64,000 nt of DNA from an uncultured Planctomycetales bacterium (GTDB taxonomy: Bacteria > Planctomycetota > Phycisphaerae > SM23-33 > FEN-1343): contig CAZHRW010000159.1 of assembly GCA_964535025.1 (NCBI GenBank), forward strand, positions 14,527 to 78,526, given 5' to 3'. Positions 1 through 26,399 of this stretch are shown piece after piece (position 1 is the first letter of the stretch; each line of letters begins with the position of its first letter). The notes beneath the pieces are model-generated. The model was not told the DNA's origin, made no database searches, and was given only the letters and a program-made list of their open reading frames with translations. A program made the position numbers and the translations under genes.

Positions 1-735
1 ATGAGCTGGTACCGCCCGGCGGGCTTCGACGCGTACAAGTACTACGTCGCCTGGGGCACCTTGAACCGCAACGCCCTGCACATGCCCCGCGGCGACGAGG
101 TCAACGGCCGCGCGGCGTGGCTGCTCGGCGAGCAGGGCGGCGATTGGGTCGACTACACCTTCGCGTTCACCGCCAACAACGCCTACCTCGGCTTCGGCGG
201 GGGCGTGGTCGTGCTGGTGCGGGACATGGATAACTGCTATTACCTCGACATCGCCCGCGGCCGTCTGGTGCGCAGGCTCGACGGCGCCGAGACCGTCCTG
301 ACGACCGTCGACGCCATTCAGATGCCCGCCACGGGCAGCCGGCGCTACGCCGTCTCCGTGGATGTCGAGCCGGCGGGCGTGACGATCGCCGTCGACGCCG
401 ACGACGACGGCACGACGGACCTGACCTTCACCGACGCCGATCCGACGGCCCTGGCGACGCTGAACGCCGGCGGCGTGGGCTTCCACTGCAACAACTCCGA
501 CAAGTGGCACGTCCTGCGCTTCGACGACCTCCGCGTCGAGGTCGCCGAGACGCGGAGCGGCGCGTCGGGTGATTGCGACGGCGATGGGGACGTCGATCTC
601 GACGATTTCGCCATTGTCAAGCTCAACTTCGGTCGCTCCGGCGTGACCGCCGGCGCCGCCGAGGGCGACCTGGACGGCGACGGGGACGTCGACCTCGACG
701 ACTTCGCGATCCTCAAGACGACCTTCGGGACGTGA
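1..735 (+). CDS. 3' part of a secreted protein (5' end lies outside the window). The C-terminus carries two dockerin-type repeats (GDCDGDGDVDLDDFAIVK and GDLDGDGDVDLDDFAILK).
   Basis: Open frame runs from the window edge to a stop at 735. The tandem Ca-binding dockerin type-I-like repeats are identical in style to the C-termini of the 9912..14918 and 31007..33328 proteins. Confidence 0.55.
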   Translation: MSWYRPAGFDAYKYYVAWGTLNRNALHMPRGDEVNGRAAWLLGEQGGDWVDYTFAFTANNAYLGFGGGVVVLVRDMDNCYYLDIARGRLVRRLDGAETVLTTVDAIQMPATGSRRYAVSVDVEPAGVTIAVDADDDGTTDLTFTDADPTALATLNAGGVGFHCNNSDKWHVLRFDDLRVEVAETRSGASGDCDGDGDVDLDDFAIVKLNFGRSGVTAGAAEGDLDGDGDVDLDDFAILKTTFGT

Positions 736-3964: not shown

Positions 3965-5274
3965 AGTACGACCAGGACACGCTCAATCAGATTCGTCGCG
4001 GCCGCAGCCGGTTCATCGCCATGGTGGTGACGTACGGGCTGGGCACGTTCAACGACAGTTTCTTCCGCCAGTCGGCCATGCTGCTGGCGGTCGCCGAAGG
4101 TCACGAGGCCATGCAGGGGTGGATCATGAGCCTGTTCGCCCTGCCGTACCTGCTGTTCGCCTCGCTGACCGGCTGGCTGGCGGACCGATTCTCCAAGAAG
4201 CGCGTCGTGATCGCCGCCAAGGCCCTGGAAGTGGTGGCGATGGTTCTGGGGGCCGTCGGGATCATCACGCTGAACTGGTGGTTCGTCCTGGCGATGGTGT
4301 TCATCATGGCGACCCAGTCGTGCCTGTTCAGCCCGGCCTTGAACGGGTCGATTCCCGAGCTGTACCCGGATGTGTACGTGACGCGGGCGAACGGGACGCT
4401 CAAGCTGGTCGTCACGGCCATGATCCTCGCCGGCGGCGCCGTCGCGGGGGTGGCGATGGGCTTCGAGGGCACCGGCTGGGGCGGCGTGCCGACCGAGCGG
4501 ATCGGCGTGGCGGTGGGGGTGGTGGCGATCTCGTTGTGCGGGCTGGCGATGAGCTTCGGCGTCGTGCGCCGGCCCGCGGCCGACCCCGACGCGCCGATAC
4601 CGCGACGGGGACCTGTCAGTACGATCCGCGAATTGATCGCCATTCGCCGCGATGCGCTGCTGGCGAAGGTGATCGCCACGAACGCGTTCACCTGGTTCGC
4701 CGGATCGTTGCTGATCCAGTTCATCAACCTGATGGCACAGAATGAATTCGGCTGGCCCAAGCAGGTCGCGGGGTACCTGGTGGCCGCCGAGTTGATCGGC
4801 CTGGCGGTGGGGGGGCTGGTGGTCAGTCGTCTGGGGGGCGGGCCGCGGTGGTACCGCGCGTTGGGGCCGTCCATACTGGCCATGGGCGGGCTGCTGGTGG
4901 TCATGGAGATGCTGCCGATGCTCCCCGACGGCGGGAGCGTGCTGTGGTCGTGGATGCCGTCGGCGCGGCGGCTGGCCGCGTACGGGCTGCTCGGTGCGAT
5001 CGGCGTGCTGGGCGGATCGGTCGTCATCCCCTGCGAGGCGTTCGTGCAGCGGCGCCCGCCGGCGGGGCGCAAGGGGACGGTTCTCGCCTCGGCCGGCTTC
5101 GCGGTGTTCGCGGGGATCCTGGTCTCCGGCCCGCTGGCGAACGTCCTGGCCGCACCCGGTGCGGGCGGACGATCGCTGGTCGCGCCCACCCGCGCGATGG
5201 CGCTGCTGGGGGTGGCGGCCCTGGCCGCCGGGGCGTTTTTCCGCCGCGCGTACGCGAAGGAGACCGAGGCATGA
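3961..5274 (+). CDS. MFS transporter, lysophospholipid transporter LplT-like
   Basis: In-frame ATG at 3961 inside track ORF 3289..5274; the upstream part of that ORF overlaps the CPBP gene out of frame. 12-TM MFS topology. Gene order MFS followed by an Aas-like acyltransferase mirrors lplT-aas. Confidence 0.7.
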   Translation: MKYDQDTLNQIRRGRSRFIAMVVTYGLGTFNDSFFRQSAMLLAVAEGHEAMQGWIMSLFALPYLLFASLTGWLADRFSKKRVVIAAKALEVVAMVLGAVGIITLNWWFVLAMVFIMATQSCLFSPALNGSIPELYPDVYVTRANGTLKLVVTAMILAGGAVAGVAMGFEGTGWGGVPTERIGVAVGVVAISLCGLAMSFGVVRRPAADPDAPIPRRGPVSTIRELIAIRRDALLAKVIATNAFTWFAGSLLIQFINLMAQNEFGWPKQVAGYLVAAELIGLAVGGLVVSRLGGGPRWYRALGPSILAMGGLLVVMEMLPMLPDGGSVLWSWMPSARRLAAYGLLGAIGVLGGSVVIPCEAFVQRRPPAGRKGTVLASAGFAVFAGILVSGPLANVLAAPGAGGRSLVAPTRAMALLGVAALAAGAFFRRAYAKETEA

Positions 5275-7913: not shown

Positions 7914-8890
7914 GCATGCGAGAGGTGCTGATGCTGGGGATGCTGACCGGGATGACGCTGGCCGGCGGGTGCGGGGGCGTGCGGGACTTCTACGCCCGCA
8001 GCCTGGTCGTGCACACGCGCCTGCCGGGCCGCCTCCAATTGGCGCTGCAGCCGCCGGACGCGGTGCTGCTGCGTCGGGGGCGGATCGACCAGGCCCGCCG
8101 GATCGCCACGAGCGACGGGGTGTGCATCGACCTGTGGGTGATCAATGCCCGACCGGCGGCGGGGGACCGCCCGCGGGGCACGGTGGTGGCACTGCACGGG
8201 TTGGCGATGTCGCGGGTGGAGATGCTGGCCACCGCCCAACGCCTGGCCGATCGGGGCTTCGACGTCGTTCTACCCGACCACCGCGCGCACGGCCGCTCGA
8301 CGGGGCGGTACACGACCTTCGGGGCCAAGGAGGCCCGCGACGTCCGGGAGGTCCTCGACGTACTCCGGGCCGAGGGGGCCGTGGCGTTGCCCACCTATGC
8401 GGTGGGCGTGTCCATGGGCGGCGCGACGGCCGTGCTGTACGCCGCCGACGATCCCGACTGCCGGGGCGTCGTCGCCCTGGCCCCGCCGGCCGACACCCGC
8501 GCGATCCTCCGACGGCTGCTGGTCGTCTACGCCCCGTGGATGGTGGGTCGCCGGGCCGACGCCGTCGTCGATCGCGCCGGGGCGCTGGCCGATTTCGACG
8601 TCGACGCCACCAGCGCCGCCGACGCCGCTCGACGCCTGACGTGCCCGCTCCTGGTCGTGCACGGCACGTTCGACGCCATCGTGCCGACCTGGCACGGCCG
8701 CCGGGTCTACGCCGCGACCGCCGGGCCGAAACGCCTTGAATGCATCCGGGGCCTCGGTCACGCCCTCATCATGACCGGCCGTGCCGACTGGATCGCCGAC
8801 CAGGTCGACGCCATGGCCGCCGGCCGCTTCGTCGCCAAAGGCACCTGGGCGAGCGATAGGGAGACGCGAGATGAAAAAGTTAGCGGATGA
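7910..8890 (+). CDS. alpha/beta hydrolase (lipoprotein signal, lysophospholipase/esterase-like)
   Basis: LTGMTLAGGCGG lipobox; GVSMGGATA = GxSxG nucleophile elbow. GTGA/ATG start is coupled to the Aas-like stop. Confidence 0.7.
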   Translation: MSMREVLMLGMLTGMTLAGGCGGVRDFYARSLVVHTRLPGRLQLALQPPDAVLLRRGRIDQARRIATSDGVCIDLWVINARPAAGDRPRGTVVALHGLAMSRVEMLATAQRLADRGFDVVLPDHRAHGRSTGRYTTFGAKEARDVREVLDVLRAEGAVALPTYAVGVSMGGATAVLYAADDPDCRGVVALAPPADTRAILRRLLVVYAPWMVGRRADAVVDRAGALADFDVDATSAADAARRLTCPLLVVHGTFDAIVPTWHGRRVYAATAGPKRLECIRGLGHALIMTGRADWIADQVDAMAAGRFVAKGTWASDRETRDEKVSG

Positions 8891-9779
8891 TGCCCTCGAC
8901 GAGTCCCATTCCGCCGCGCCGTCCGTCAGCAAGCCAAAGAAGCCGCTGTGGCGGCGGCTGGTCGTGAGCGTCCTGCGCATCGTCATCGCGGCCTACGTCG
9001 GCCTGGCGCTGGTGCTGACGTCGTGTCAGTCGCGGATTGTCTATCAACCGTCGGAGACCATGGACGCGACGCCCGATGAGGCGGCGATGGAGTACGAAGA
9101 CGTCCGCTTCACCGCCGACGACGGGGTTCGCCTCCACGCGTGGTATATCCCGGCTGAGGGGGCCCGAGGCACGGTACTGGTCTGTCACGGCAATGCCGGC
9201 AATATCTCCGGCCGCCTGGCGACCGCGGCGCTGTTCCAGCGGCTGGGGCTGTCGGTGCTGCTGTTCGACTACCGTGGCTACGGGCTCAGCGAGGGCAAGC
9301 CGAGCGAGGAGGGCACTTACCTCGACGCGGCCGCCGCGTGGCGGTACCTTACCGAGGAGCGGGGGATCGACCCGGCCGGGATCGTGGTCTTCGGCCGTTC
9401 GCTGGGCTCGGCGATCGCGACCCGCCAGGCGGCCGCGGCGCCGCCGGCGGCGCTGATCGTCGAGTCGGCGTTCACCTCGGTCCCGGACGTCGCCAGGCAT
9501 TATTACCGCTTCCTGCCGGTCGGGTGGCTGTGCCGGTTCGACTACGCGACGGAAGCGACCATCGGCCGGGTGCGCTGCCCGGTCCTGGTCATCCACAGCC
9601 GCGACGACGAGATCATCCCCTTCGCCATGGGGCGGCGGGTGTTCGAGGCCGCGGGCGAGCCCAAACGCTTCCTGGCCATCGGCGGCGGACACAACGACGG
9701 CTTCCTCGTCAGCCAGGGCGATTATCTGCGCGAGATCGATTCGGTGCTCGACGAGGTCCTCGGCAAGGACGGGACCTGA
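8871..9779 (+). CDS. alpha/beta hydrolase with N-terminal membrane anchor
   Basis: Start MKKLADD at 8871, preceded by GGAGACG. TM segment LVVSVLRIVIAAYVGLALVL. CHGNAGN and GRSLGSAIA (GxSxG) motifs. Confidence 0.7.
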   Translation: MKKLADDALDESHSAAPSVSKPKKPLWRRLVVSVLRIVIAAYVGLALVLTSCQSRIVYQPSETMDATPDEAAMEYEDVRFTADDGVRLHAWYIPAEGARGTVLVCHGNAGNISGRLATAALFQRLGLSVLLFDYRGYGLSEGKPSEEGTYLDAAAAWRYLTEERGIDPAGIVVFGRSLGSAIATRQAAAAPPAALIVESAFTSVPDVARHYYRFLPVGWLCRFDYATEATIGRVRCPVLVIHSRDDEIIPFAMGRRVFEAAGEPKRFLAIGGGHNDGFLVSQGDYLREIDSVLDEVLGKDGT

Positions 9780-9911
9780 TCGGGGGTGCGAAACAATCCG
9801 GACGATAGGGGGCTGACGGGCGCCGGGGGATGTGATACAATGCCGGTGTCTTGCATTCTTTGTGAACAGGTGGGCCCGACGCGCATTCGCTGAATAGGAG
9901 ACAGACGCGTA

Positions 9912-12900
9912 ATGGAACGTTCGGCAACTCAGCCCCACGGTGGGCATCTCGGCGGTTGTCCGCTTCCCGGTTTCGAGACCCTCGAGCCGCGATTGATGCT
10001 GGCCGGCGACGTGGTGATCTCGGAGTTCATGGCCATCAACGATGGGACGCTGGCCGACGTGGACGGGGATTACAGCGACTGGATCGAACTGCACAACCGC
10101 GGCGACGACGCCGTCGACCTCGACGGGTGGTTTCTCACCGACGATCCGGCCGACCTGACCAAGTGGCGGATCCCCGCGATCACGCTGGCCGCCGGGGAGA
10201 TCGAGGTGATCTTCGCCTCCGACAAGGATCGCGACGACCCGGACGGTGAACTGCACACGGGCTTCAAGCTCAGCGGTTCGGGCGAGTACCTGGCGCTGGT
10301 GATGCCCGACGGGACCTCCATCGCCCACGCCTACGCGCCGACGGTCCAGTACGCCGACGTCTCCTACGGGCTCGACCTGGACGGCAACCCCGCCTACTTC
10401 GACCCGGCCACGCCCGGGGTGCCCAACGCCGGGGACGTGGAACTGCTGCCGGACGTCGAGTTCTCCGTCCAGCACGGCGTCTTCGACGCGCCGTTCACAC
10501 TGACGCTGAGCAGTTCGGTCCAGGATGCGACCATTTACTACACGCTGGACGGCACGGATCCCTACGGGGCGATCGACGCCGTCGAATACACCGGCCCGAT
10601 CGTCATCGACGCGACCACCGTCGTGCGGGCCTATGCCGAGACCTGGGACGCCGAATCCGCGGTGACCACGCAGACCTACATCTCCCTCGCATCGGTCCTG
10701 ACCCAGGGCGACGACCAGACCGCCATCGGCTTCCCCGACATCTGGCACGCCGGGGCCGGCGGCAGCGGCATCTACGACAGCGAATACCGCGACGCCGATT
10801 ACGAGATGGACCCGGACATCATCAACGACCCGGTCTGGGGGCCGCTGCTGACCGAGGCGCTCACCCAGATTCCGTCCATGGCGCTGACGCTGGACCCGTA
10901 CGACTTGTGGGACCCGGAAGACGGCATCTACCCCAACTCGATCCAGCGCGCCAGCCGCGACGACAAGTGGGAAAAGCCCTCGTCGCTGGAGTTGTTTTAC
11001 CCCGACGGCAGCACCGAGGAAGGCTTCACCGTCAACGCCGGCGCCCGCATGTTCGGCGAACTGGCCCGATGGGCCGCGGTCAACGACAAGCAGAGCTTCC
11101 GGATGGTGTTCCAGGGCGAGTACGGCCCGACGAAGCTGGTGACCGACTTCTTCGGCGACTCCGACGTCGACGAGTACGACACCATCGTCATGCGGGCCCA
11201 CTGGGGCAAGTCCTGGCTGCTGGACGAGGCCCTCGGCGACCGGCTGGGGGTTTCCTGGCTGAATTCCGATCCGTCGTCGGCCCAGTACCTCCGCGACCTC
11301 TACGCCCTGACCACCTTCGCCGATACCGGCAACCTCAGCTCCGACGGGCGCATGGTCCACCTGTACCTCAATGGCCTGTACTGGGGCCTTTACGAGGTCA
11401 TCGAACGGCCGGACAACTCCTTCAACGCCGAGCACCGTGGCGGGGACAAGGACGACTACAGCGTCATGAAGGGCGCCGCCGGCACATTCGCCTACCGCGG
11501 CGAGAACACGTATAACATTGGTGTGCACATGCCCTACTACATGTCCAACGGCCGCCTCCAGGACGGTAGCCGCGACATGTGGGACTGGCTCTTCCATACG
11601 TATTTCGATGCCCACGAGGACGGCATCAACATGCTCGAGCGGGACAATGTCACCCCGGTCCGCGGCACGATTAGTGATGAGGAACTGGCCGAGATCGCCC
11701 AATACGTCGACCTCGACAACCTCATCGACTACATGATCACGCTGTGGACGCTCAACCGCGGGGACTTCCCCGGCAAGAACTGGTACGCCGCCTGGGAAGG
11801 CGGCGCCGCCGACACGCCGCCCGACAAGCCGATCCAGTTCTACGTGTGGGACTCCGAAGCGTCCCTGGCCGGTACGGAGATCACGCATTGGACTCCGCCG
11901 GCCGAGCGATGGAACAGCCCCAGCAAGGGTAATGACACCGGCCCGGTCCGCATGTACTGGCGGCTGATCACCAACCAGGGCTTCCGCATCCGCTGGATGG
12001 AACGGGCCCGGGATCTGCTGGGCGACGGCGGGCCCCTCTCGGATGAGGCCTCCATGCAGCGCTACGCGGAGATGGCCTCGCAGATCGACATGGCCGTCAT
12101 CGCCGAATCCGCCCGCTGGGGCGACTCGGCGACGCTGCACATCAACGACCCGATGACCAAGGACGACTGGCAGGCCGAGTACGACCGCCTCATGGCCGAG
12201 TGGTTCCCCGGCCGCGCCGAGATGGTCCTGGCCGAGATGGGGGCGGCGGGGCTGGACGATGCGCCGACGGCGCCCGAGATCGACGTCCCCGGTGGTCTGG
12301 TTCAGCCCGGCACAATGGTGATGCTGAGCACGGTCGGCGACGGCGAGGTATGGTACACGCTCGACGGCACCGACCCCATGGACGGCGTCGGGATGCCGAT
12401 GCCGATGAGCGACCCGCGGCTGCAATGGGCCTTCAACGATACCGGAACCGATCTGGGCACCGCCTGGCGGGAAATCGACTACGACGATTCGACCTGGGGT
12501 ACGGGCACCGGCCGTCTCGGCTATGGCACCGGCGACGAGGATACCGCCATCGGCTTCGGCGACGATTCGCTCGACAAGCACATCACCACCTACTTCCGTG
12601 CCAACATCATCCTGGACGAAGTGCCGGACGATACGGTGACGCTCTACGTCCGCCGCGACGACGGCGTGGCGATCTACGTCAACGGCCATCGCATCGCCGA
12701 GCCGCACGACAATCTGCCCGCCGGCGAGATCACCTACGACACGCTGGCCAGCTCGTCGGTGGCCTTCGGGGCCGAAAACCAGTGGCACACATACGAAGTG
12801 GACCCGTCGCTGTTCGTCGAGGACCACAACGTGATCGCCGCGGAGGTCCACAAGTACAGCCCGCGCGGCTGGGACCTGACCTTCGAGATGACCACCGACC

Positions 12901-14918
12901 TGCCGTTGCAGAGCATCTCGGCCGTCCCCGTCGAACTGTTTACCGACACCCACCTGGTCGTCCGCACGATGCGCGACGGCAAGTGGAGCTACAAAACCGA
13001 GGCCGTCTACATCGTCGACGAGGCCCCGCCCCTGGCGATCACGGAGGTCAACTACAACCCGGCGGCCGCGATGGCGGCCGAATACCAGGCGGGCGCGACG
13101 GACGCCCAGGACTTCGAGTTCATCGAGGTCCACAACCCCACCGGCAATCCGATCCGCCAGATCGGCGCGACCCTGAGCGAGGGCATCACCGCGACGCTGC
13201 CATTGTTCGAACTCGAACCCGGCGAGTACGGCGTATTCGTCCGCGACCGCGAGGCCTTCCAATTGCGGTACGGCACCGACGTGAAGATCCTCGGCGAGTA
13301 CACTCGCCACCTGGGCAACGGGGGCGACCGGATCGTGCTGACCAGCTCCAACGGGGCGGTCCTGGCCGACTTCACCTATGACGACGCCGCCAACTGGCCC
13401 GGCCGCGCCGACGGCCGCGGCGCCACGCTGGAGGTCATCGACACCCAGGGCGACTACAACAGCGACGACACCTGGCGCTCGTCGACCGAGTATCTCGGCA
13501 CCCCCGGCGCCGCCGGGATCGGGCCCGTCGACTCGGTGATCATCAACGAAGTGGTCACCAATCCCGACGGCGGCTCCGACGCGATTGAACTGCACAACCC
13601 CACCGGCGAGGCGATCGACATCGGCGGCTGGTACCTCAGCGACACCGCCGACGAGTACACCCGCTACCGCATCGGCGACGATACGGTCATCCCGGCCGGC
13701 GGATACCTGGTCTTGACGGACGCCGAGCTGGGATTCGGCCTCAGCCGCTTCGGCGAGGACGTCTGGCTCATGGCCGCCGACGGCGACGGGGCCCTGACCC
13801 GGTTCGTCGACCACGTCGAATTCGGCGCGGCCCTGGAGGGGATGCCCTTCGGACGCTATCGGGGCCAGGACGCCGACGGCGATTTCACCGCCCTGGCGAG
13901 CATTACACTCGGCGGGCCCAACGCCGGGCCGTTCCCCAGCGACGTGATCCTCAGCGAAGTCCACTACCATCCCGGCGACCTGGCCGGATCGACTGAGGCC
14001 GACCTGGAGTTCCTCGAGCTGTACAACCGCAGCGATCACCCCGTCCCGCTCGACTGGTACGACGCCAACGGCAACGGCGTCCGCGACGCCGGCGAGCAGG
14101 GCGCCTGGCGGCTGGCCGGCGCCGTCGAGTTCGCCTTCCCGGCCGGCACGACGATCGACCCCGGCGGCACGCTGGTCGTTGTGGGCGCCGCGTCGGTCGA
14201 GGCGTTCCGGACGGCCTACGGGATCGATGAGAGCGTAGCCGTTTTGGGCGCCTGGGACGGCCGGCTGGCCAACGGCCGCGAGCGGATCGACCTGTGCCTG
14301 CCGGCGCCTCTGCGCACCGGGGACACCGAGACGGCCTACGTCGTGGCCGACTGGGTCGACTACAAGGACCACCTGCCCTGGCCCGTCTCGGCTGACGGCG
14401 CCGGCGATTCACTCCACCGCATGCGCGCCTGGGCGTACGGCAACGACGTCACGAACTGGTTCGCCGCCGAGCCCAACCCCGGGCAGGCGGCCCTGACGCC
14501 GGAGGCCCTGGAAGGCGATCTGAACCACGACCTCCAGGTCGACGGCGTCGACATCGGCCTGATCAACCGGGCTGTCCGCGAGGGGGCGACCGATCTGCGG
14601 TTCGACCTGGACGGCGACGGGGACGTCGACGGCGCCGACGTGGACTACCTGCTCCAGGGGATCCTCGGCACGCACGCCGGGGACTTCAACCTCGATGGGT
14701 ACGTCGACCTCGACGACTTCGACGCGCTCAAGACCGGCTTCGGCAAGCCCGCCGGCTGGTCCGGCGGCGACGCCAACGGCGACGGGAGGGTCGACCTGGA
14801 GGACTTCGCCATCCTCAAGAAAAACTACGGCGCCCAGCCGGTCCAGCAGGCCGATCCGGACAACCTGCTGGCGCCCCTGGACGTCCTGGCCGAAGTCGCC
14901 GCCGGCCCCCTTGGGTAG
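9912..14918 (+). CDS. giant secreted CotH kinase-like protein with four lamin-tail domains (LTD) and C-terminal dockerin repeats
   Basis: 1668 aa. LTD signatures VVISEFMAINDG...DWIELHN, ITEVNYNP...FIEVHNPTGNPI, VIINEVVTNPDG...IELHNPTGEAI, VILSEVHYHP...LELYNRSDHPV. CotH core MVHLYLNGLYWGLYEVIERPDNSF. C-terminal DLDGDGDVDGADVDYLL, GDFNLDGYVDLDDFDALK and GDANGDGRVDLEDFAILK dockerin repeats. N-terminal motif ETLEPRLMLAGD. Confidence 0.75.
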   Translation: MERSATQPHGGHLGGCPLPGFETLEPRLMLAGDVVISEFMAINDGTLADVDGDYSDWIELHNRGDDAVDLDGWFLTDDPADLTKWRIPAITLAAGEIEVIFASDKDRDDPDGELHTGFKLSGSGEYLALVMPDGTSIAHAYAPTVQYADVSYGLDLDGNPAYFDPATPGVPNAGDVELLPDVEFSVQHGVFDAPFTLTLSSSVQDATIYYTLDGTDPYGAIDAVEYTGPIVIDATTVVRAYAETWDAESAVTTQTYISLASVLTQGDDQTAIGFPDIWHAGAGGSGIYDSEYRDADYEMDPDIINDPVWGPLLTEALTQIPSMALTLDPYDLWDPEDGIYPNSIQRASRDDKWEKPSSLELFYPDGSTEEGFTVNAGARMFGELARWAAVNDKQSFRMVFQGEYGPTKLVTDFFGDSDVDEYDTIVMRAHWGKSWLLDEALGDRLGVSWLNSDPSSAQYLRDLYALTTFADTGNLSSDGRMVHLYLNGLYWGLYEVIERPDNSFNAEHRGGDKDDYSVMKGAAGTFAYRGENTYNIGVHMPYYMSNGRLQDGSRDMWDWLFHTYFDAHEDGINMLERDNVTPVRGTISDEELAEIAQYVDLDNLIDYMITLWTLNRGDFPGKNWYAAWEGGAADTPPDKPIQFYVWDSEASLAGTEITHWTPPAERWNSPSKGNDTGPVRMYWRLITNQGFRIRWMERARDLLGDGGPLSDEASMQRYAEMASQIDMAVIAESARWGDSATLHINDPMTKDDWQAEYDRLMAEWFPGRAEMVLAEMGAAGLDDAPTAPEIDVPGGLVQPGTMVMLSTVGDGEVWYTLDGTDPMDGVGMPMPMSDPRLQWAFNDTGTDLGTAWREIDYDDSTWGTGTGRLGYGTGDEDTAIGFGDDSLDKHITTYFRANIILDEVPDDTVTLYVRRDDGVAIYVNGHRIAEPHDNLPAGEITYDTLASSSVAFGAENQWHTYEVDPSLFVEDHNVIAAEVHKYSPRGWDLTFEMTTDLPLQSISAVPVELFTDTHLVVRTMRDGKWSYKTEAVYIVDEAPPLAITEVNYNPAAAMAAEYQAGATDAQDFEFIEVHNPTGNPIRQIGATLSEGITATLPLFELEPGEYGVFVRDREAFQLRYGTDVKILGEYTRHLGNGGDRIVLTSSNGAVLADFTYDDAANWPGRADGRGATLEVIDTQGDYNSDDTWRSSTEYLGTPGAAGIGPVDSVIINEVVTNPDGGSDAIELHNPTGEAIDIGGWYLSDTADEYTRYRIGDDTVIPAGGYLVLTDAELGFGLSRFGEDVWLMAADGDGALTRFVDHVEFGAALEGMPFGRYRGQDADGDFTALASITLGGPNAGPFPSDVILSEVHYHPGDLAGSTEADLEFLELYNRSDHPVPLDWYDANGNGVRDAGEQGAWRLAGAVEFAFPAGTTIDPGGTLVVVGAASVEAFRTAYGIDESVAVLGAWDGRLANGRERIDLCLPAPLRTGDTETAYVVADWVDYKDHLPWPVSADGAGDSLHRMRAWAYGNDVTNWFAAEPNPGQAALTPEALEGDLNHDLQVDGVDIGLINRAVREGATDLRFDLDGDGDVDGADVDYLLQGILGTHAGDFNLDGYVDLDDFDALKTGFGKPAGWSGGDANGDGRVDLEDFAILKKNYGAQPVQQADPDNLLAPLDVLAEVAAGPLG

Positions 14919-15123: not shown

Positions 15124-16665
15124 CTACGGATGGGCCGGCCGTTCCTTGCCGTTCTGGACGGTCAGGGCGCGGTTGACCGCGGCGAGGTAGGCCAGGCCGG
15201 AGGCCTCGACCACGTCGGTGTGGACCCCTCGGCCGCGGAATCTGCGGCCCTCGTGGATCACCTCGACGCTGACCTCGCCCTGGGCGTCGGTGCCGCCGGT
15301 CAGGGCGCGGAGCTGGTAGTCGCTTAGCGTCACCGATGCGCCGGTGATCCGCTGAATGGCCGAGTAGACCGCGTCGACGGGCCCGTCGCCGGTGGCGGCA
15401 TCGGTATGGTCCTCGTTGTCGCGGCTCAGGGTGACGGTGGCGGTCGGGGTGGTGCTGTCGCCGGCGATGGTCTGCAGGCCCTTGAGCGACCATACCTGGA
15501 TCGCCGTCTCCGTTTGCGCGTCGATGATCGCCTCGATGTCCTCGTCGTAGACGTTCTTCTTCTTGTCGGCCAGGGCGATGAACTGCTCGAAGGCGGCGTC
15601 CATGTCCTCGTCGGTGAGCGCGTAGCCCAGCGTCGCGACGCGGTCGCGGAAGGCGTGGCGGCCGGAGGGCTTGCCGAGGACGAGCTTGTTGGAGGGGATC
15701 CCGACGTCCTCCGGTCGCATGATCTCGTAGGTCTCGCGGTGCGCCATGACGCCGTGCTGGTGGATGCCCGCTTCGTGGGCGAAGGCGTTCTCGCCGACGA
15801 CGGCCTTGTTGCGCTGGACCATCAGCCCCGTGATGCTCGTGAGCAGACGGCTGGTGGGGTAGATCCGCTGGGTGGCGATCCGTGTCTCGGCGTCGAAGAC
15901 ATCCCCGCGGGTTCGCAGGGCCATGACAACCTCCTCGAGGGAGGCGTTGCCGGCCCGCTCGCCGATGCCGTTGACGGTGCACTCGACCTGCCCGGCCCCG
16001 GCGGCGACCGCCGCGAGACTGTTGGCCACGGCCAGGCCCAGGTCGTCATGACAATGGACGCTGATGACGGCCTTGTCGATATTGGGGACGTTCTCGCGGA
16101 TGTTGGCGATCAGGGCGCCGAACTGGTCGGGGATGGCGTAGCCGACCGTGTCGGGGATGTTCACCGTCGTCGCGCCGGCGGCGATGACCGCTTCCAGGAC
16201 GTCGTTGAGGAAGTCCCACTCGGTCCGCGAGGCGTCCTCGGGGCTGAACTCGACGTCGTCGGTGAACGTCCGGGCCAGGCGGACCGACTCGACGCTCATG
16301 TCGATGATCTGCTCCTTCTTCTTGCGGAGCTTATGGTTGCGGTGGATCTCGCTGGTGGCGCAGAACACGTGGATCCGCCGTTTCGACGCCGGGGCGAGCG
16401 CGTCGGCGGCGGTGACGATATCCTTCTCCAGCGACCGCGCCAGCCCGCAGATGATCGGCCCGGCGACGGCCTCGCTGATGGCGCGGACCGCCTGGAAGTC
16501 GCCGGGGGAAGCGACGGGGAAGCCCGCTTCGATGACATCCACGTTCAGCTTGGCCAGCGCGTGGGCCAACTGGAGCTTCTCATTGAGGTTCATGCTCGCG
16601 CCGGGGCTCTGTTCGCCGTCGCGGAGCGTGGTGTCGAAGATCGTGATGATGCGTTTCTCGGCCAT
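15124..16665 (-). CDS. leuA: 2-isopropylmalate synthase
   Basis: [25 protein letters not shown]... HxH metal site [15 protein letters not shown]; C-terminal LeuA regulatory domain. Start chosen at the internal ATG (16665). The track ORF extends to 16809 through an arginine-rich non-LeuA extension that overlaps the terminator hairpin. Confidence 0.85.
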
Positions 16666-16810
16666 AATAGGTGTACTCGCTGTCGTCCATTGTCCGTTCG
16701 AATCAAGGGCCGCGTCGCCGCGCGCCCACGCGGGGGGATCCGCGTTATAGTCGAAACGGCTTGCTGTTATACCGTTGTGCGGCCATCGGCGTCGCCTCCA
16801 AACAGGCATG

Positions 16811-16840
16811 AAAAAACCCGCAACCGGTCAGGGTCGCGGG
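16811..16840 (-). terminator. intrinsic terminator of the leuA leader (attenuator): 9-bp GC stem, 6-nt loop, U6 tract
   Basis: Minus-strand RNA CCCGCGACC-CUGACC-GGUUGCGGG-UUUUUU, read from plus-strand aaaaaacccgcaaccggtcagggtcgcggg. Confidence 0.6.
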
Positions 16841-16887
16841 TGATCGTTCCATCAGCTTCGGCGTGGTGCAGCAGATCCCGCGGCCCG

Positions 16888-16947
16888 TTAGCGCAACAGT
16901 AGCGCCAGGGCGTCGGCAAGGATCAGGCTGTCACCGGTCATGGTCAT
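16888..16947 (-). CDS. leu leader peptide MTMTGDSLILADALALLLR (19 aa, 7 Leu including LALLL run)
   Basis: ATG..TAA small ORF located between a consensus promoter and the terminator hairpin, ~150 nt upstream of leuA. Confidence 0.55.
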   Translation of the reverse strand: MTMTGDSLILADALALLLR

Positions 16948-16975
16948 CAGGGCTCTCGCAATAACGTCACCTCAT

Positions 16976-17003
16976 AGTATATCGGACAGGCGCGGGGTTT
17001 CAA
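16976..17003 (-). promoter_or_regulatory. sigma70-like promoter for the leu leader: -35 TTGAAA, 16-nt spacer, -10 TATACT
   Basis: Minus-strand sequence TTGAAAccccgcgcctgtccgaTATACT lies immediately downstream of the trpC stop and ~30 nt upstream of the leader ATG. Confidence 0.45.
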
Positions 17004-17016
17004 TCAGAAATCCGCC

Positions 17017-17832
17017 TTAACGTGCCGGGCCGAGCAGGTCGCCGATCTTCGCGGCGATGTCGTCGCTGCGCATGAGCGACTCGCCCACGAGGATCCCGCG
17101 GACGCCCGCGGCGGCGAGGCGCTCGACGTCGGCGTGGGTGTGGATGCCCGACTCGCTGACGAGGATGTCGCGGCCGTCGACCAGGTCGGCCAGGCGCAGC
17201 GTGGTGGCGATGTCGGTGGTGAAGGTGGTCAGGTCCCGATTATTGATCCCCAGCAGGACGTACCCGCCGGCAGGAAAACCCGCCAGCGAGCGGACGCGGA
17301 GAAGTTCGTCGGCGTCGTGGACCTCGATCAGGCACGTCAGCGACAACTGGCTGGCCAGGATGAGCAGGTCGGTCAAGGGGCCGGTCTGCAGGCACGCGGC
17401 GATCAGGAGGACCGCGTCGGCCCCGGCGGCCCGTGATTCGTAAACCTGGTAAGGATCAATAATAAAATCCTTGCGGAGGACGGGCAGGCCCACCGCCTGG
17501 CGGACCTGGGTGAGGTAGGCCAGGCTCCCCTGAAAGTACGTCTCATCCGTCAGGACACTGATGGCTGAGGCGCCGGCGGCCTCGTAGGTGCGGGCGATCG
17601 CGACGGGGTCGAAGTCGGTGCGGATGACGCCCGCCGAGGGCGAGGCCTTCTTGACCTCGGCGATGAGGTTGACGGCGCGGGCCGGGCGCCGGCTGATGGC
17701 GCGATAGAAGTTGCGACAGCGCGGCAGGTTGCGGCACTGGCGGATCAGCGTTTCGGTCGGACGCGCCTGCTTGGCCGCGGCGACTTCTTTGCGCTTGGTT
17801 TCGGTGATCTCATGCAATATAGTCCGGGCCAT
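17017..17832 (-). CDS. trpC: indole-3-glycerol phosphate synthase
   Basis: 271 aa. LIAEVKKASPSAGVIRTDFDPVAIARTYEAAGASAISVLTDETYFQGS is the TrpC signature. Confidence 0.9.
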   Translation of the reverse strand: MARTILHEITETKRKEVAAAKQARPTETLIRQCRNLPRCRNFYRAISRRPARAVNLIAEVKKASPSAGVIRTDFDPVAIARTYEAAGASAISVLTDETYFQGSLAYLTQVRQAVGLPVLRKDFIIDPYQVYESRAAGADAVLLIAACLQTGPLTDLLILASQLSLTCLIEVHDADELLRVRSLAGFPAGGYVLLGINNRDLTTFTTDIATTLRLADLVDGRDILVSESGIHTHADVERLAAAGVRGILVGESLMRSDDIAAKIGDLLGPAR

Positions 17833-24860: not shown

Positions 24861-26399
24861 ATGGGCAACGATGGTCCCGCGCTTGTGAACATCCCCCCGA
24901 CGGCCCCGCGACGGTGGCTGGGACCGGCCCTGCTCGCGGTCGCCCTGGCGGCCGGCGGCTGCATAAGCGGAGCCGCCGGTCCCGAGCAGGTCTACAACGA
25001 CCGCGTCGCGGTCTACGAGCGCTGGCAGCGCGGCCGTGAGGCCGACGCCGAGACCCTGCCGGTCCTGTCGGGGCGGCTGAGCCTCGCCGACGCCGTCAAG
25101 GTCGCCCTGGCCTACAACAAGTCCCTCCTGGCCGTCCTCCAGGACAAGCGGATCGCCCGCGGCCGCGTGGTTGCCTCCTACGCCGAGGCGCTGCCGACCG
25201 TGACAGCCCAGGCGAGCTACACGCGGCTGGACGAGGTGACGAGCTTCAACGCCGGCGGGCAGTGGATCTCGACGGGCGAGTTGGACAACTACGCGGTCGA
25301 CCTGAGCGTCCGCCAGCCTGTCTACCGCGGCGGGGCGATCCGCTCGGCGATCCGCGGCGCGGAACTGTTCGCCCATCTGACCGACGAGACGGTCCGCGCC
25401 GGCGTCCAGGCCGTGGTCTACGACGTCGCGGCCACGTACTACGCGACGCTGCTGGCGCGGCAGCTCTACGAGGTCAACCGCCAGGCGGTCGTTTCCGCCG
25501 AGGCGCACCTGGCCGACGTGCGGACAAAAGCCGAGCAGGGCGTCGCGTCGCGGTTCGACGTGCTTCGCGCCCAGGTGGATGTCTCGAACTTCCAGGCCGA
25601 GATGATCCGCCAGCAGAACCGGCTGAACCTCGCCCGTACCCGGCTGCTCAAGACGATGGGCGCCTCGCAGGATACGCAGGTCGTCCTCAGCGACGAGTTG
25701 ACCTACCATCCGATCGAGCCGTCGGAGGCCGAGGCGGTCCGGCTGGCGTATCTCCGCCGGCCGGACCTCTACCGGGCCGAGCTGGCCGTCCGCCTGCAAA
25801 GCGAGGCCGTCCGGATCGCCCGCAGCGCCTATTGGCCGAGGATCGACGCACTGTTTACCCAAGGCTGGGCCCGACCCGACCCCCACACGTCCACCGACGA
25901 CTGGGGCGACCGGTGGACGGCGGGCGTGCAGGCGGAGATCCCGATCTTCGACGGGCTGCGGCGCGAGGGCCGCCTGATCGAGGAGAAGGCGGCGCTGGCG
26001 CGCCGGCGGATCGAGCGCGACGACGCGACCGACCAGGCCCTGCTGGAGATCCGCCAGGCTCTGCTGAGCGTGGAGGACGCCGAGCAATTCGTCGCCAGCC
26101 AGCGGCTGAACCTCGAGCGGGCCCACGAGGGGCTGCGGCTGGCGGAGGTCGGCTACCGGGAGGGCGTCAACACGGAGGTGGAAGTGGTCGACGCCCGCGC
26201 CGCCCTGACGCGGGCGCGGGGCTTGTATTACCAGGCGGTCCATGATCACGCGCTGGCCCGGCTGGCCCTGCAGCGGGCGACGGGCGGCCTGGCGCCGCCG
26301 CCGGGCGAGACCGCCGTCGAAGCCGTGCCGGCGCTGAGACCGCCGCACGAAGAGGCGCTCGAGCCGACCTCGGCGCCGGCGGGAGCAAACAACGAATGA
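24861..26399 (+). CDS. outer membrane efflux protein (TolC/OprM family, lipoprotein)
   Basis: Lipobox LAAGGC. Two OEP repeats with coiled-coil/beta-barrel pattern. Confidence 0.8.
   Translation: MGNDGPALVNIPPTAPRRWLGPALLAVALAAGGCISGAAGPEQVYNDRVAVYERWQRGREADAETLPVLSGRLSLADAVKVALAYNKSLLAVLQDKRIARGRVVASYAEALPTVTAQASYTRLDEVTSFNAGGQWISTGELDNYAVDLSVRQPVYRGGAIRSAIRGAELFAHLTDETVRAGVQAVVYDVAATYYATLLARQLYEVNRQAVVSAEAHLADVRTKAEQGVASRFDVLRAQVDVSNFQAEMIRQQNRLNLARTRLLKTMGASQDTQVVLSDELTYHPIEPSEAEAVRLAYLRRPDLYRAELAVRLQSEAVRIARSAYWPRIDALFTQGWARPDPHTSTDDWGDRWTAGVQAEIPIFDGLRREGRLIEEKAALARRRIERDDATDQALLEIRQALLSVEDAEQFVASQRLNLERAHEGLRLAEVGYREGVNTEVEVVDARAALTRARGLYYQAVHDHALARLALQRATGGLAPPPGETAVEAVPALRPPHEEALEPTSAPAGANNE

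Follow-up and report, generated by a model that had tools for sequence, protein, structure and literature searches.

The window analysed here is a stretch of 64,000 nucleotides (64 kb) from contig CAZHRW010000159.1 of an uncultured Planctomycetales bacterium. On its minus strand, leuA, the gene for 2-isopropylmalate synthase, is preceded by a short leader that begins directly behind trpC and consists of a promoter, a Leu-rich open reading frame (ORF), a segment with two alternative pairing partners and an intrinsic terminator. Sequence, comparison with relatives and folding models indicate that this leader is very probably a leucine-responsive, ribosome-mediated transcription attenuator controlling leuA. 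The features at the locus are the following:

17832..17017, minus strand: trpC ORF (IGPS), with its TAA stop at 17019..17017
17003..16976, minus strand: sigma-70-like promoter of the leader transcript (consensus scan)
16953..16957, minus strand: weak Shine-Dalgarno (SD)-like sequence GAGAG, 5 nt 5' of the leader ATG (sequence reading)
16888..16947, minus strand: leader ORF of 19 codons plus TAA, peptide MTMTGDSLILADALALLLR, with its ATG at 16947 and TAA at 16890..16888
16908..16935, minus strand: region 1, the anti-antiterminator strand within the ORF, codons 5-14 (minimum free energy (MFE) folds)
16889..16907, minus strand: small conserved hairpin, G(G/C)GC ... GCGC (RNAalifold consensus, columns 59-64 with 72-77)
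16865..16886, minus strand: region 2, with its core GGGCCGCGGG at 16886..16877, one base 3' of the stop
16811..16841, minus strand: intrinsic terminator, regions 3 and 4 (terminator scan and alignment)
15124..16665, minus strand: leuA, 2-isopropylmalate synthase (NCBIfam, Pfam and homologue lengths)

The -35 hexamer TTGAAA (17003..16998) begins 13 bases past the trpC TAA, as read on the minus strand, and a 16-nt spacer separates it from the -10 hexamer TATACT (16981..16976), the two together matching at 10/12 positions; by the consensus scan, the 10 kb around it contain five sigma-70-like sites, with 0.8 expected. From the -10 box it is 28 nt to the leader ATG at 16947. Six codons of the MTMTGDSLILADALALLLR ORF specify Leu (8, 10, 14, 16, 17 and 18): CTG at codon 8 (16926..16924), CTT at codon 10 (16920..16918), CTG at codon 14 (16908..16906) and the run CTA CTG TTG at codons 16-18 (16902..16894), which occupies the loop and the 3' strand of the small hairpin. 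Region 2 may pair either with region 1, as it does in the MFE folds of the ribosome-free window RNA, or with the 5' arm of the terminator; its core GGGCCGCGGG is complementary to CCCGCGACCC (16840..16831) at 9/10 positions, with a single C.A mismatch. The terminator is composed of the 5' arm ACCCGCGACC (16841..16832), the loop CTGACC (16831..16826), the 3' arm GGTTGCGGGT (16825..16816) and a run of six T (T6) that extends to 16811. Its stem comprises 10 pairs (seven G-C, two A-U and one G.U; ~-19.7 kcal/mol), and the hairpin 16841..16816 is the strongest terminator-like site of the 10 kb scanned. Promoter, ORF, region 2 and terminator thus follow each other in the canonical order inside 193 nt, and the fold of the 166-nt leader beats 200/200 shuffles (z = -3.7). 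When all 64 kb were scanned for small ORFs that contain amino-acid runs and are followed by a terminator, no second attenuator came to light.

The original prediction, which had proposed an attenuator at this position, had correctly placed a TTGAAA-N16-TATACT promoter behind the trpC stop, a segment after the leader stop that can pair with the terminator arm, and leuA about 150 nt downstream; the distance from the T run to the ATG at 16665 is 145 nt. Its 19-codon leader ORF stands, with six Leu residues instead of the seven that it had counted, and so does its terminator with the T6 tract, on a 10-bp stem with one G.U pair instead of a 9-bp GC stem. It had also regarded the annotated leuA as wrongly extended through the terminator, which is borne out. 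The longest leuA ORF starts from an ATG at 16809 within the terminator T run and adds 48 Arg-rich codons (16666..16809). Judging from homologues and family models, the real start of leuA is the ATG at 16665, not 16809: nearly all of the best 120 homologues have 513-514 residues and align from residue 1 of the short LeuA, the NCBIfam and Pfam models begin at residues 3-7 of this form, and the extension is not conserved, because in 9/13 relatives a stop codon interrupts the frame between terminator and leuA start. The gene model is to be corrected to a leuA from 16665, the 'Arg-rich extension' being a frame that runs through the terminator. The assignment of the product is firm: LeuA scores 783 bits against NF002086 (cut-off 532) and 743 bits against TIGR00973 in NCBIfam, and carries the Pfam domains HMGL-like, HCS_D2 and LeuA_dimer. 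leuA is apparently monocistronic; the next gene, CotH/LTD at 9912..14918 on the plus strand, is convergent, and besides leuA no other branched-chain amino acid genes are found in the 64-kb window.

Conservation and covariation of the leader

The decisive evidence against a chance arrangement is the conservation of the leader in 13 other loci. LeuA homologues at 91, 88, 82, 80, 76, 75, 74 ... 66% identity are labelled Planctomycetota or Phycisphaerae, and the comparison set comprises 14 distinct leuA loci, the window and 13 from Phycisphaerae-like Planctomycetota, including the metagenome locus L081; in two LeuA scans of genome and metagenome contigs, the matches listed are mostly from distant phyla at <=61% identity. 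The same leader element is present upstream of leuA in 14/14 loci. The genes that precede it are trpC, yhbY (on the opposite strand), ruvX, a GH4 glycosidase (on the opposite strand), PilZ, TPR and HTH genes; since the upstream gene varies while the element stays, the element belongs to leuA and not to trpC. The original prediction had named a lack of conservation in relatives as the outcome that would speak against it; ORF, Leu codons and hairpin are kept in every locus.

The ORF is readable as 19 codons plus a stop throughout the set, the stop being TGA in 11 loci, TAA in two and TAG in one. Leu is found at codons 8, 10, 16, 17 and 18 in all 14 sequences, written with 2-5 synonymous codons per position (CTT, CTG, CTA, CTC and TTG at codon 10, for example), and codons 11-14 are likewise Leu in 6-9 of them. 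In the leader frame 101/266 codons (38%) are Leu codons; 6 and 21 Leu codons (2% and 8%) fall in the two remaining frames, which also contain 29 and 6 stops. The start codon and a GAGG-like SD sequence are kept, with GAGG 6-10 nt before the start in most relatives, and a -10-like element, cGATAtAgT, lies 16-31 nt 5' of the leader ATG in the 10/14 loci with a promoter scored by the scan; L171, L172 and L174 have a similar -10-like element by eye. Region 2 begins exactly one base past the stop in all 14 loci. Codon 15 is always G(C/G)G (Ala/Gly) and codon 19 CGC (Arg), because of the small hairpin around Leu codons 16-18.

The spelling of the Leu codons deviates from that of the genome. The long ORFs of the window use CTG (45%), CTC (38%), CTT (11%), TTG (4%), CTA (1.1%) and TTA (0.6%), whereas the leaders have CTA at codon 16 in 9/14 and at codon 12 in 7/14 loci, frequent TTG, and CTC at just 3/101 Leu codons. 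This preference for CTA and TTG could reflect sensitisation by rare codons or a constraint from RNA structure. In enterobacteria, work of the Calvo laboratory is said to have found that a preference for rare Leu codons (CUA) makes the leu leader sensitive.

Covariation was assessed in a structure alignment of the 14 loci, with slid helices as controls and, for the pairings between regions 1 and 2 (1:2), shuffles in addition. The helices compare as follows:

Terminator helix, columns 129-141 with 148-160: 93.1% of cells paired, 9/13 pairs compensatory; slid controls 36-49%
Antiterminator helix, columns 80-89 with 132-141: 90.7% of cells paired, 4/10 pairs compensatory; slid controls 34-53%
1:2 helix in the design of the window, codons 5-14 with the post-stop segment: 63% paired, 8/20 compensatory (126/500 shuffles as high); slid controls ~41%
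1:2 helix in the MIRQ design, AUGAUCCGUCAG with CUGACGGAUC: 68% paired, 4/10 compensatory (28/500 shuffles as high); slid controls 22-45%

In the antiterminator, columns 82/139 form A-U in 8 and G-C in 5 sequences, and columns 89/132 form G-C in 9 and A-U in 4. The covariation between region 2 and the 5' arm of the terminator does not depend on the 3' arm, a pattern characteristic of two helices that exclude each other; the alternative antiterminator of the original prediction is found in the alignment as well as in the window. The 1:2 pairing of the MIRQ subgroup joins the start-codon and stop-codon regions. As a general 1:2 helix, this start-codon/stop-codon pairing (P1) was rejected, as it fails in the window's own clade. 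The alignment makes it evident that region 1 was reshaped in the course of evolution, whereas the Leu codons and regions 2-4 were retained. Sequence and comparison together establish which elements are present, that the Leu codons are under coding constraint and that terminator and antiterminator covary; they likewise establish the linkage to leuA and, as set out below, to leuS.

Two repeats were seen at leuA loci of relatives. In L172 (~200..440, plus strand), 2-3 tandem copies of a unit of ~85 nt (…GTAGCCACGGGTGAAGCGAAGCTGAGCCCGTGGAAACGGGCG…CAGGGGGCG) lie just 5' of the leader promoter. In L169 (~4640..4815, plus strand), a long imperfect inverted repeat, with units CCAAATCCCAA... facing ...TTGGGATTTGG, is situated between leuA and the next gene.

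Predicted dependence on ribosome position

In MFE folds of the full-length transcript, the terminator is present under every ribosome mask; these folds are uninformative, because the terminator is thermodynamically dominant. Classical attenuators behave likewise: the terminator appears in full-length folds, and the choice between structures is kinetic. To model the switch, the transcript was folded only as far as the loop of the terminator, its 3' arm being cut off, while a mask of 28 nt, standing for a ribosome with an assumed footprint from -15 to +12 relative to the A site, was stepped through the ORF; the expected number of region 2:region 3 (2:3) pairs in the ensemble served as the measure of the switch. 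In the window, this number is 0.0 when no ribosome is present, 4.7-7.8 with the A site at codons 4-16, 0.7 with the A site at codon 17 and at most 0.1 with the A site at codon 18 or beyond, up to the stop. Averaged over the 14 loci, 8.4 2:3 pairs are expected at codon 16 and 0.3 at the stop. In these models, the dependence on ribosome position is the behaviour expected of a leucine attenuator.

The leader could control leuA in the following manner: Transcription would start a few bases past the -10 box (16981..16976), and a ribosome would load on the 19-codon ORF while RNA polymerase is still transcribing. When charged tRNA-Leu is ample, the ribosome would reach the stop codon and mask region 2, or it would leave, whereupon region 2 may re-pair with region 1. 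Either way, the terminator 5' arm would remain free, the 10-bp hairpin with its U6 tract could form and the transcript would end at ~16811. When charged tRNA-Leu is scarce, a stall on Leu codon 8, 10, 14 or 16 would mask region 1 and free GGGCCGCGGG; the freed region 2 would then capture the emerging terminator 5' arm (CCCGCGACCC), no terminator would form and the polymerase would continue into leuA. By analogy to the classical systems, the leader is proposed to be coupled to the ribosome and to respond to leucine, with kinetics deciding between the structures. The element has the parts by which a classical attenuator is recognized, namely an ORF with its own start and ribosome-binding site (RBS), cognate codons, a terminator, an antiterminator and association with a cognate gene, and the leuL/trpL-type logic of the original prediction gains support from both the covariation and the constrained folding.

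Related leaders, known systems and alternative explanations

A covariance model built from the 14-locus alignment matches all family members with 99-130 bits and has one strong match in the 64-kb window, the leader itself (122 bits). Weak matches of 3.6-11 bits at 25584, 26156 and 30300, which fall within efflux-pump genes, were disregarded. In L167, the model reveals a second copy of the leader (4565..4716, plus strand; 82 bits) with a 19-codon peptide, MIPRRHNVSLLLLHGFLLR, its own terminator and the same post-stop segment, CGGATCGC, complementary to its own terminator arm. This copy is positioned directly upstream of a leuS fragment that begins at 4754 (leucine--tRNA ligase, TIGR00396, E = 6e-83). 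Paralogous Leu leaders before both leuA and leuS would be hard to explain other than by leucine control.

Weaker matches of the model fall on the leuA leaders of a Planctomycetaceae metagenome-assembled genome (MAG) (L001/L082; 26 bits) and of L138 (22 bits). When 150 other leuA loci were scanned for a Leu-rich small ORF with a terminator, 10 hits were obtained on the sense strand and none on the antisense strand. Those without a named taxon come from unlabelled metagenome contigs. Among the ten are two Planctomycetaceae MAGs with the leaders MNHDLLNLSLLLLHPLPPGMA and MQSLDLLNLNLLSLLESGRS, a bacterium of the Planctomycetes, Verrucomicrobia and Chlamydiae (PVC) group, a Verrucomicrobia bacterium (…STLLLLLRKNDSACV), the unlabelled metagenome contig L138 and L081, which is itself a family member; three of the ten look weak, namely L008 (which is a Nitrospirae MAG), L086 and L117. 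Constrained folding of L001 (2592..2744), L002, L014, L017 and L138 (2289..2440) makes the pairing of the 5' arm dependent on ribosome position. In the leuA loci sampled from Omnitrophota, Clostridia, cyanobacteria and Aquificota, no Leu-rich ORF with a terminator was seen. Leu leader attenuation of leuA seems to be widespread in the PVC group, as far as these sequences indicate.

The closest parallels in organization are the enterobacterial leuL and trpL leaders, with which the window leader shares the promoter, a short ORF with a Leu codon run near the stop, the post-stop segment and a terminator before leuA; the control codons stand 2-4 codons before the stop, as in trpL. The leuL peptide has 28 residues with four consecutive Leu, and rare Leu codons are preferred in it. 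The window peptide has 19 residues with Leu fixed at 8, 10 and 16-18, and the leader controls a stand-alone leuA rather than leuABCD. Unlike leuL, it is separated from its gene by a further 145 nt behind the terminator that contain a second small ORF, and it has no detectable homology in sequence or structure to leuL, the Rfam family Leu_leader (RF00512) giving no match at E <= 10. The LeuA leader of Streptococcus, which was found by PASIFIC (PMC5314783), likewise has a Leu-rich upstream ORF over an anti-antiterminator and terminator/antiterminator alternatives before leuA. It belongs to another phylum, is unrelated in sequence and is thus independently evolved; RNA-seq and Term-seq back it, whereas the window element is predicted from sequence. 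The ilv-leu leader of Staphylococcus aureus (PMC5794164) is similar in that a Leu-rich leader peptide represses branched-chain amino acid genes, and differs in that it serves a Firmicute operon that is also under CodY.

In Actinobacteria, candidate Leu-leader attenuators are described before leuS of Streptomyces, and an upstream ORF with a Leu run before leuA of most members (PMC1262725); the window leader type resembles these in serving both leuA and leuS. The actinobacterial LEU element has no terminator and forms a pseudoknot, at the base of which the Leu codons pair with the Shine-Dalgarno sequence of leuA; it was judged unlikely to work by classical attenuation (PMC1262725). The window differs in its canonical terminator 145 nt before leuA and in the distance of ~230 nt that separates the Leu run from the start of leuA; by eye, this run, CUACUGUUG, is not complementary to the upstream or ribosome-binding region of leuA. 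The statement in the original prediction that ribosome-mediated attenuation is rare outside Proteobacteria and Firmicutes was too strong in view of the actinobacterial trp, leuS and ilvB leaders described (PMC1262725). Full-text searches of a literature that did not include the broadest attenuator survey, by Lopatovskaya and colleagues in 2010, found no leader-peptide attenuator described for Planctomycetota, Phycisphaerae or Verrucomicrobia. The Bacteroid-trp motif (RF01692) is a Bacteroidetes leader of the attenuator kind. The motif is listed in PMC2864571.

Alternative explanations start from the same parts. The leader might be a look-alike of an attenuator, that is, an RNA recognized by a protein or another factor, or an ORF that acts on translation or mRNA stability only. 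Mutations of the candidate regulatory codons in Streptomyces coelicolor had no or a non-classical effect (PMC1262725), and the weakly conserved 1:2 pairing together with the extra conserved segment past the terminator would suit such a role. All four classical parts are present here, however, unlike in the LEU element, and terminator and antiterminator covary; the Leu codons are kept as amino-acid identities with synonymous change and not as a sequence, and region 2 keeps the fixed distance to the stop codon that a ribosome-position sensor needs. We thus regard a look-alike as improbable. Less probable still is an RNA that senses a metabolite or a tRNA, in the manner of a riboswitch or a T-box, and contains the small ORF only by accident. 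Many riboswitches and T-boxes are structured regions in a 5' leader that end in a terminator, as this one is, but conservation here follows codons (an open frame, a fixed 19 codons, synonymous Leu changes, SD sequence and start), and the 14-locus alignment contains no conserved unpaired block outside the helices that could form a ligand pocket. Rfam has no gathering-level match in the window; at E <= 10 with permissive filters, the sole matches in 16500..17200 were two sub-threshold sRNA models on the terminator, isrK with 14.2 bits and NsiR1 with 13.6 bits, and neither a leader family nor the T-box model was among them.

The leader might also be a tiny independent transcription unit that encodes a hydrophobic peptide, or its terminator might belong to the trpC unit, leuA being transcribed from a separate promoter downstream. 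The peptide is indeed hydrophobic, and 145 nt before leuA leave room for a promoter. Yet the element always occurs just before leuA (once leuS), even behind divergently transcribed genes, and a gene that merely encodes a peptide would have no use for a covarying antiterminator overlapping with the terminator. The consensus scan detected no promoter-like site between 16811 and 16665, and the spacers of 55-75 nt between terminator and leuA in relatives leave little room for one. This explanation has the same very slight probability as a riboswitch or T-box.

Several observations weigh against a leucine attenuator of the simple, classical form. The anti-antiterminator (1:2) is poorly conserved, with 63-68% paired cells and two designs in the family. 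In L164, L165 and L172-L174, the ribosome-free RNA, ended before the 3' arm, already forms the antiterminator, so that a default in which the absence of translation means termination is not universal. Folding was at equilibrium with an assumed footprint, whereas the real decision is kinetic; with this footprint, a stall at Leu17 or Leu18 in the window would mask part of region 2. The SD sequence of the window, GAGAG, is weak, and the 145-nt stretch between terminator and leuA with its conserved second ORF falls outside the simple model. In S. coelicolor, the attenuator-like leaders of leuA and ilvB proved non-classical after codon mutation (PMC1262725).

If the leader acts as a leucine attenuator, its mechanism is a textbook one and introduces no new regulatory principle; what is new is the phylum in which it is found. 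Leader-peptide attenuation would be extended to Planctomycetota and, via looser relatives, to Verrucomicrobia, with unusually clean comparative support. The mechanism requires the ribosome to follow RNA polymerase closely, and a conserved family of attenuators would therefore be indirect evidence for transcription-translation coupling in the phylum. Should this hold in Phycisphaerae, Planctomycetaceae and Verrucomicrobia, it would provide genomic evidence of tight coupling that bears on the debate about a compartmentalised planctomycete cell, the cell plan having been under discussion (PMC5394234, PMC5287468). The alignment and the covariance model could also serve to annotate the element elsewhere and, in uncultured Phycisphaerae, to point to genes under leucine regulation such as leuS.

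The segment between terminator and leuA

The 145-nt stretch between the T run and leuA contains one further feature:

16745..16799, minus strand: second small ORF, peptide MAAQRYNSKPFRL, with GGAGG at 16799..16795, 8 nt of spacing, ATG at 16786 and TAA at 16745

Counterparts of the MAAQRYNSKPFRL ORF, with SD sequence, start codon and an xPFRL peptide, are present in L161, L162, L167 and L169 and possibly in L171. The window, L161, L162, L167 and L169 each contain a single copy of a 12-nt motif, CCGTTTCGACTA (16759..16748 in the window), 93-102 nt upstream of the leuA ATG. Only the MAAQRYNSKPFRL frame is open as an ORF in every locus that carries it, and a change of a Ser codon from AGC to TCC hints that the ORF is coding. 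Its conserved end reads CGA-CUA, CGA being an Arg codon and CUA the Leu codon that is rare in this genome. Relatives that lack the second ORF have the short spacers of 55-75 nt and a strong AAGGAG before leuA, whereas the leuA RBS of the carriers is weaker.

From these sequences, the second small ORF may belong to the regulatory region; that it represents a second, translational control step is speculation. It might gate translation of leuA, because leuA lacks a strong AAGGAG RBS there. The idea that the PVC superphylum widely employs a two-stage leucine sensor, with the attenuator followed by a second small ORF that read-through transcripts must pass, is tentative and rather doubtful as it stands. 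Two further candidates around this ORF were rejected. A long-range stem between CCGTTTCGA in the second ORF and a UCGAACGG-like segment ~30-40 nt before leuA has inconsistent partners, and 74-362/500 shuffles are as good. A near-copy of CCGTTTCGACTA with one mismatch, CCGGTTCGACTA, at 9533..9544 on the plus strand lies in an alpha/beta-hydrolase coding region and was judged to be due to chance (0.17 expected by shuffling, two observed including the real one).

Downstream of leuA, two very long ORFs on opposite strands overlap, one at 8880..14372 on the minus strand and the other at 9912..14918 on the plus strand. The plus-strand ORF encodes LTD, CotH, Fn3_assoc and dockerin domains. The minus-strand ORF, with 1830 residues and a G+C content at third codon positions (GC3) of only 0.65, is probably non-coding, a shadow frame of the kind that DNA of high G+C content typically shows.

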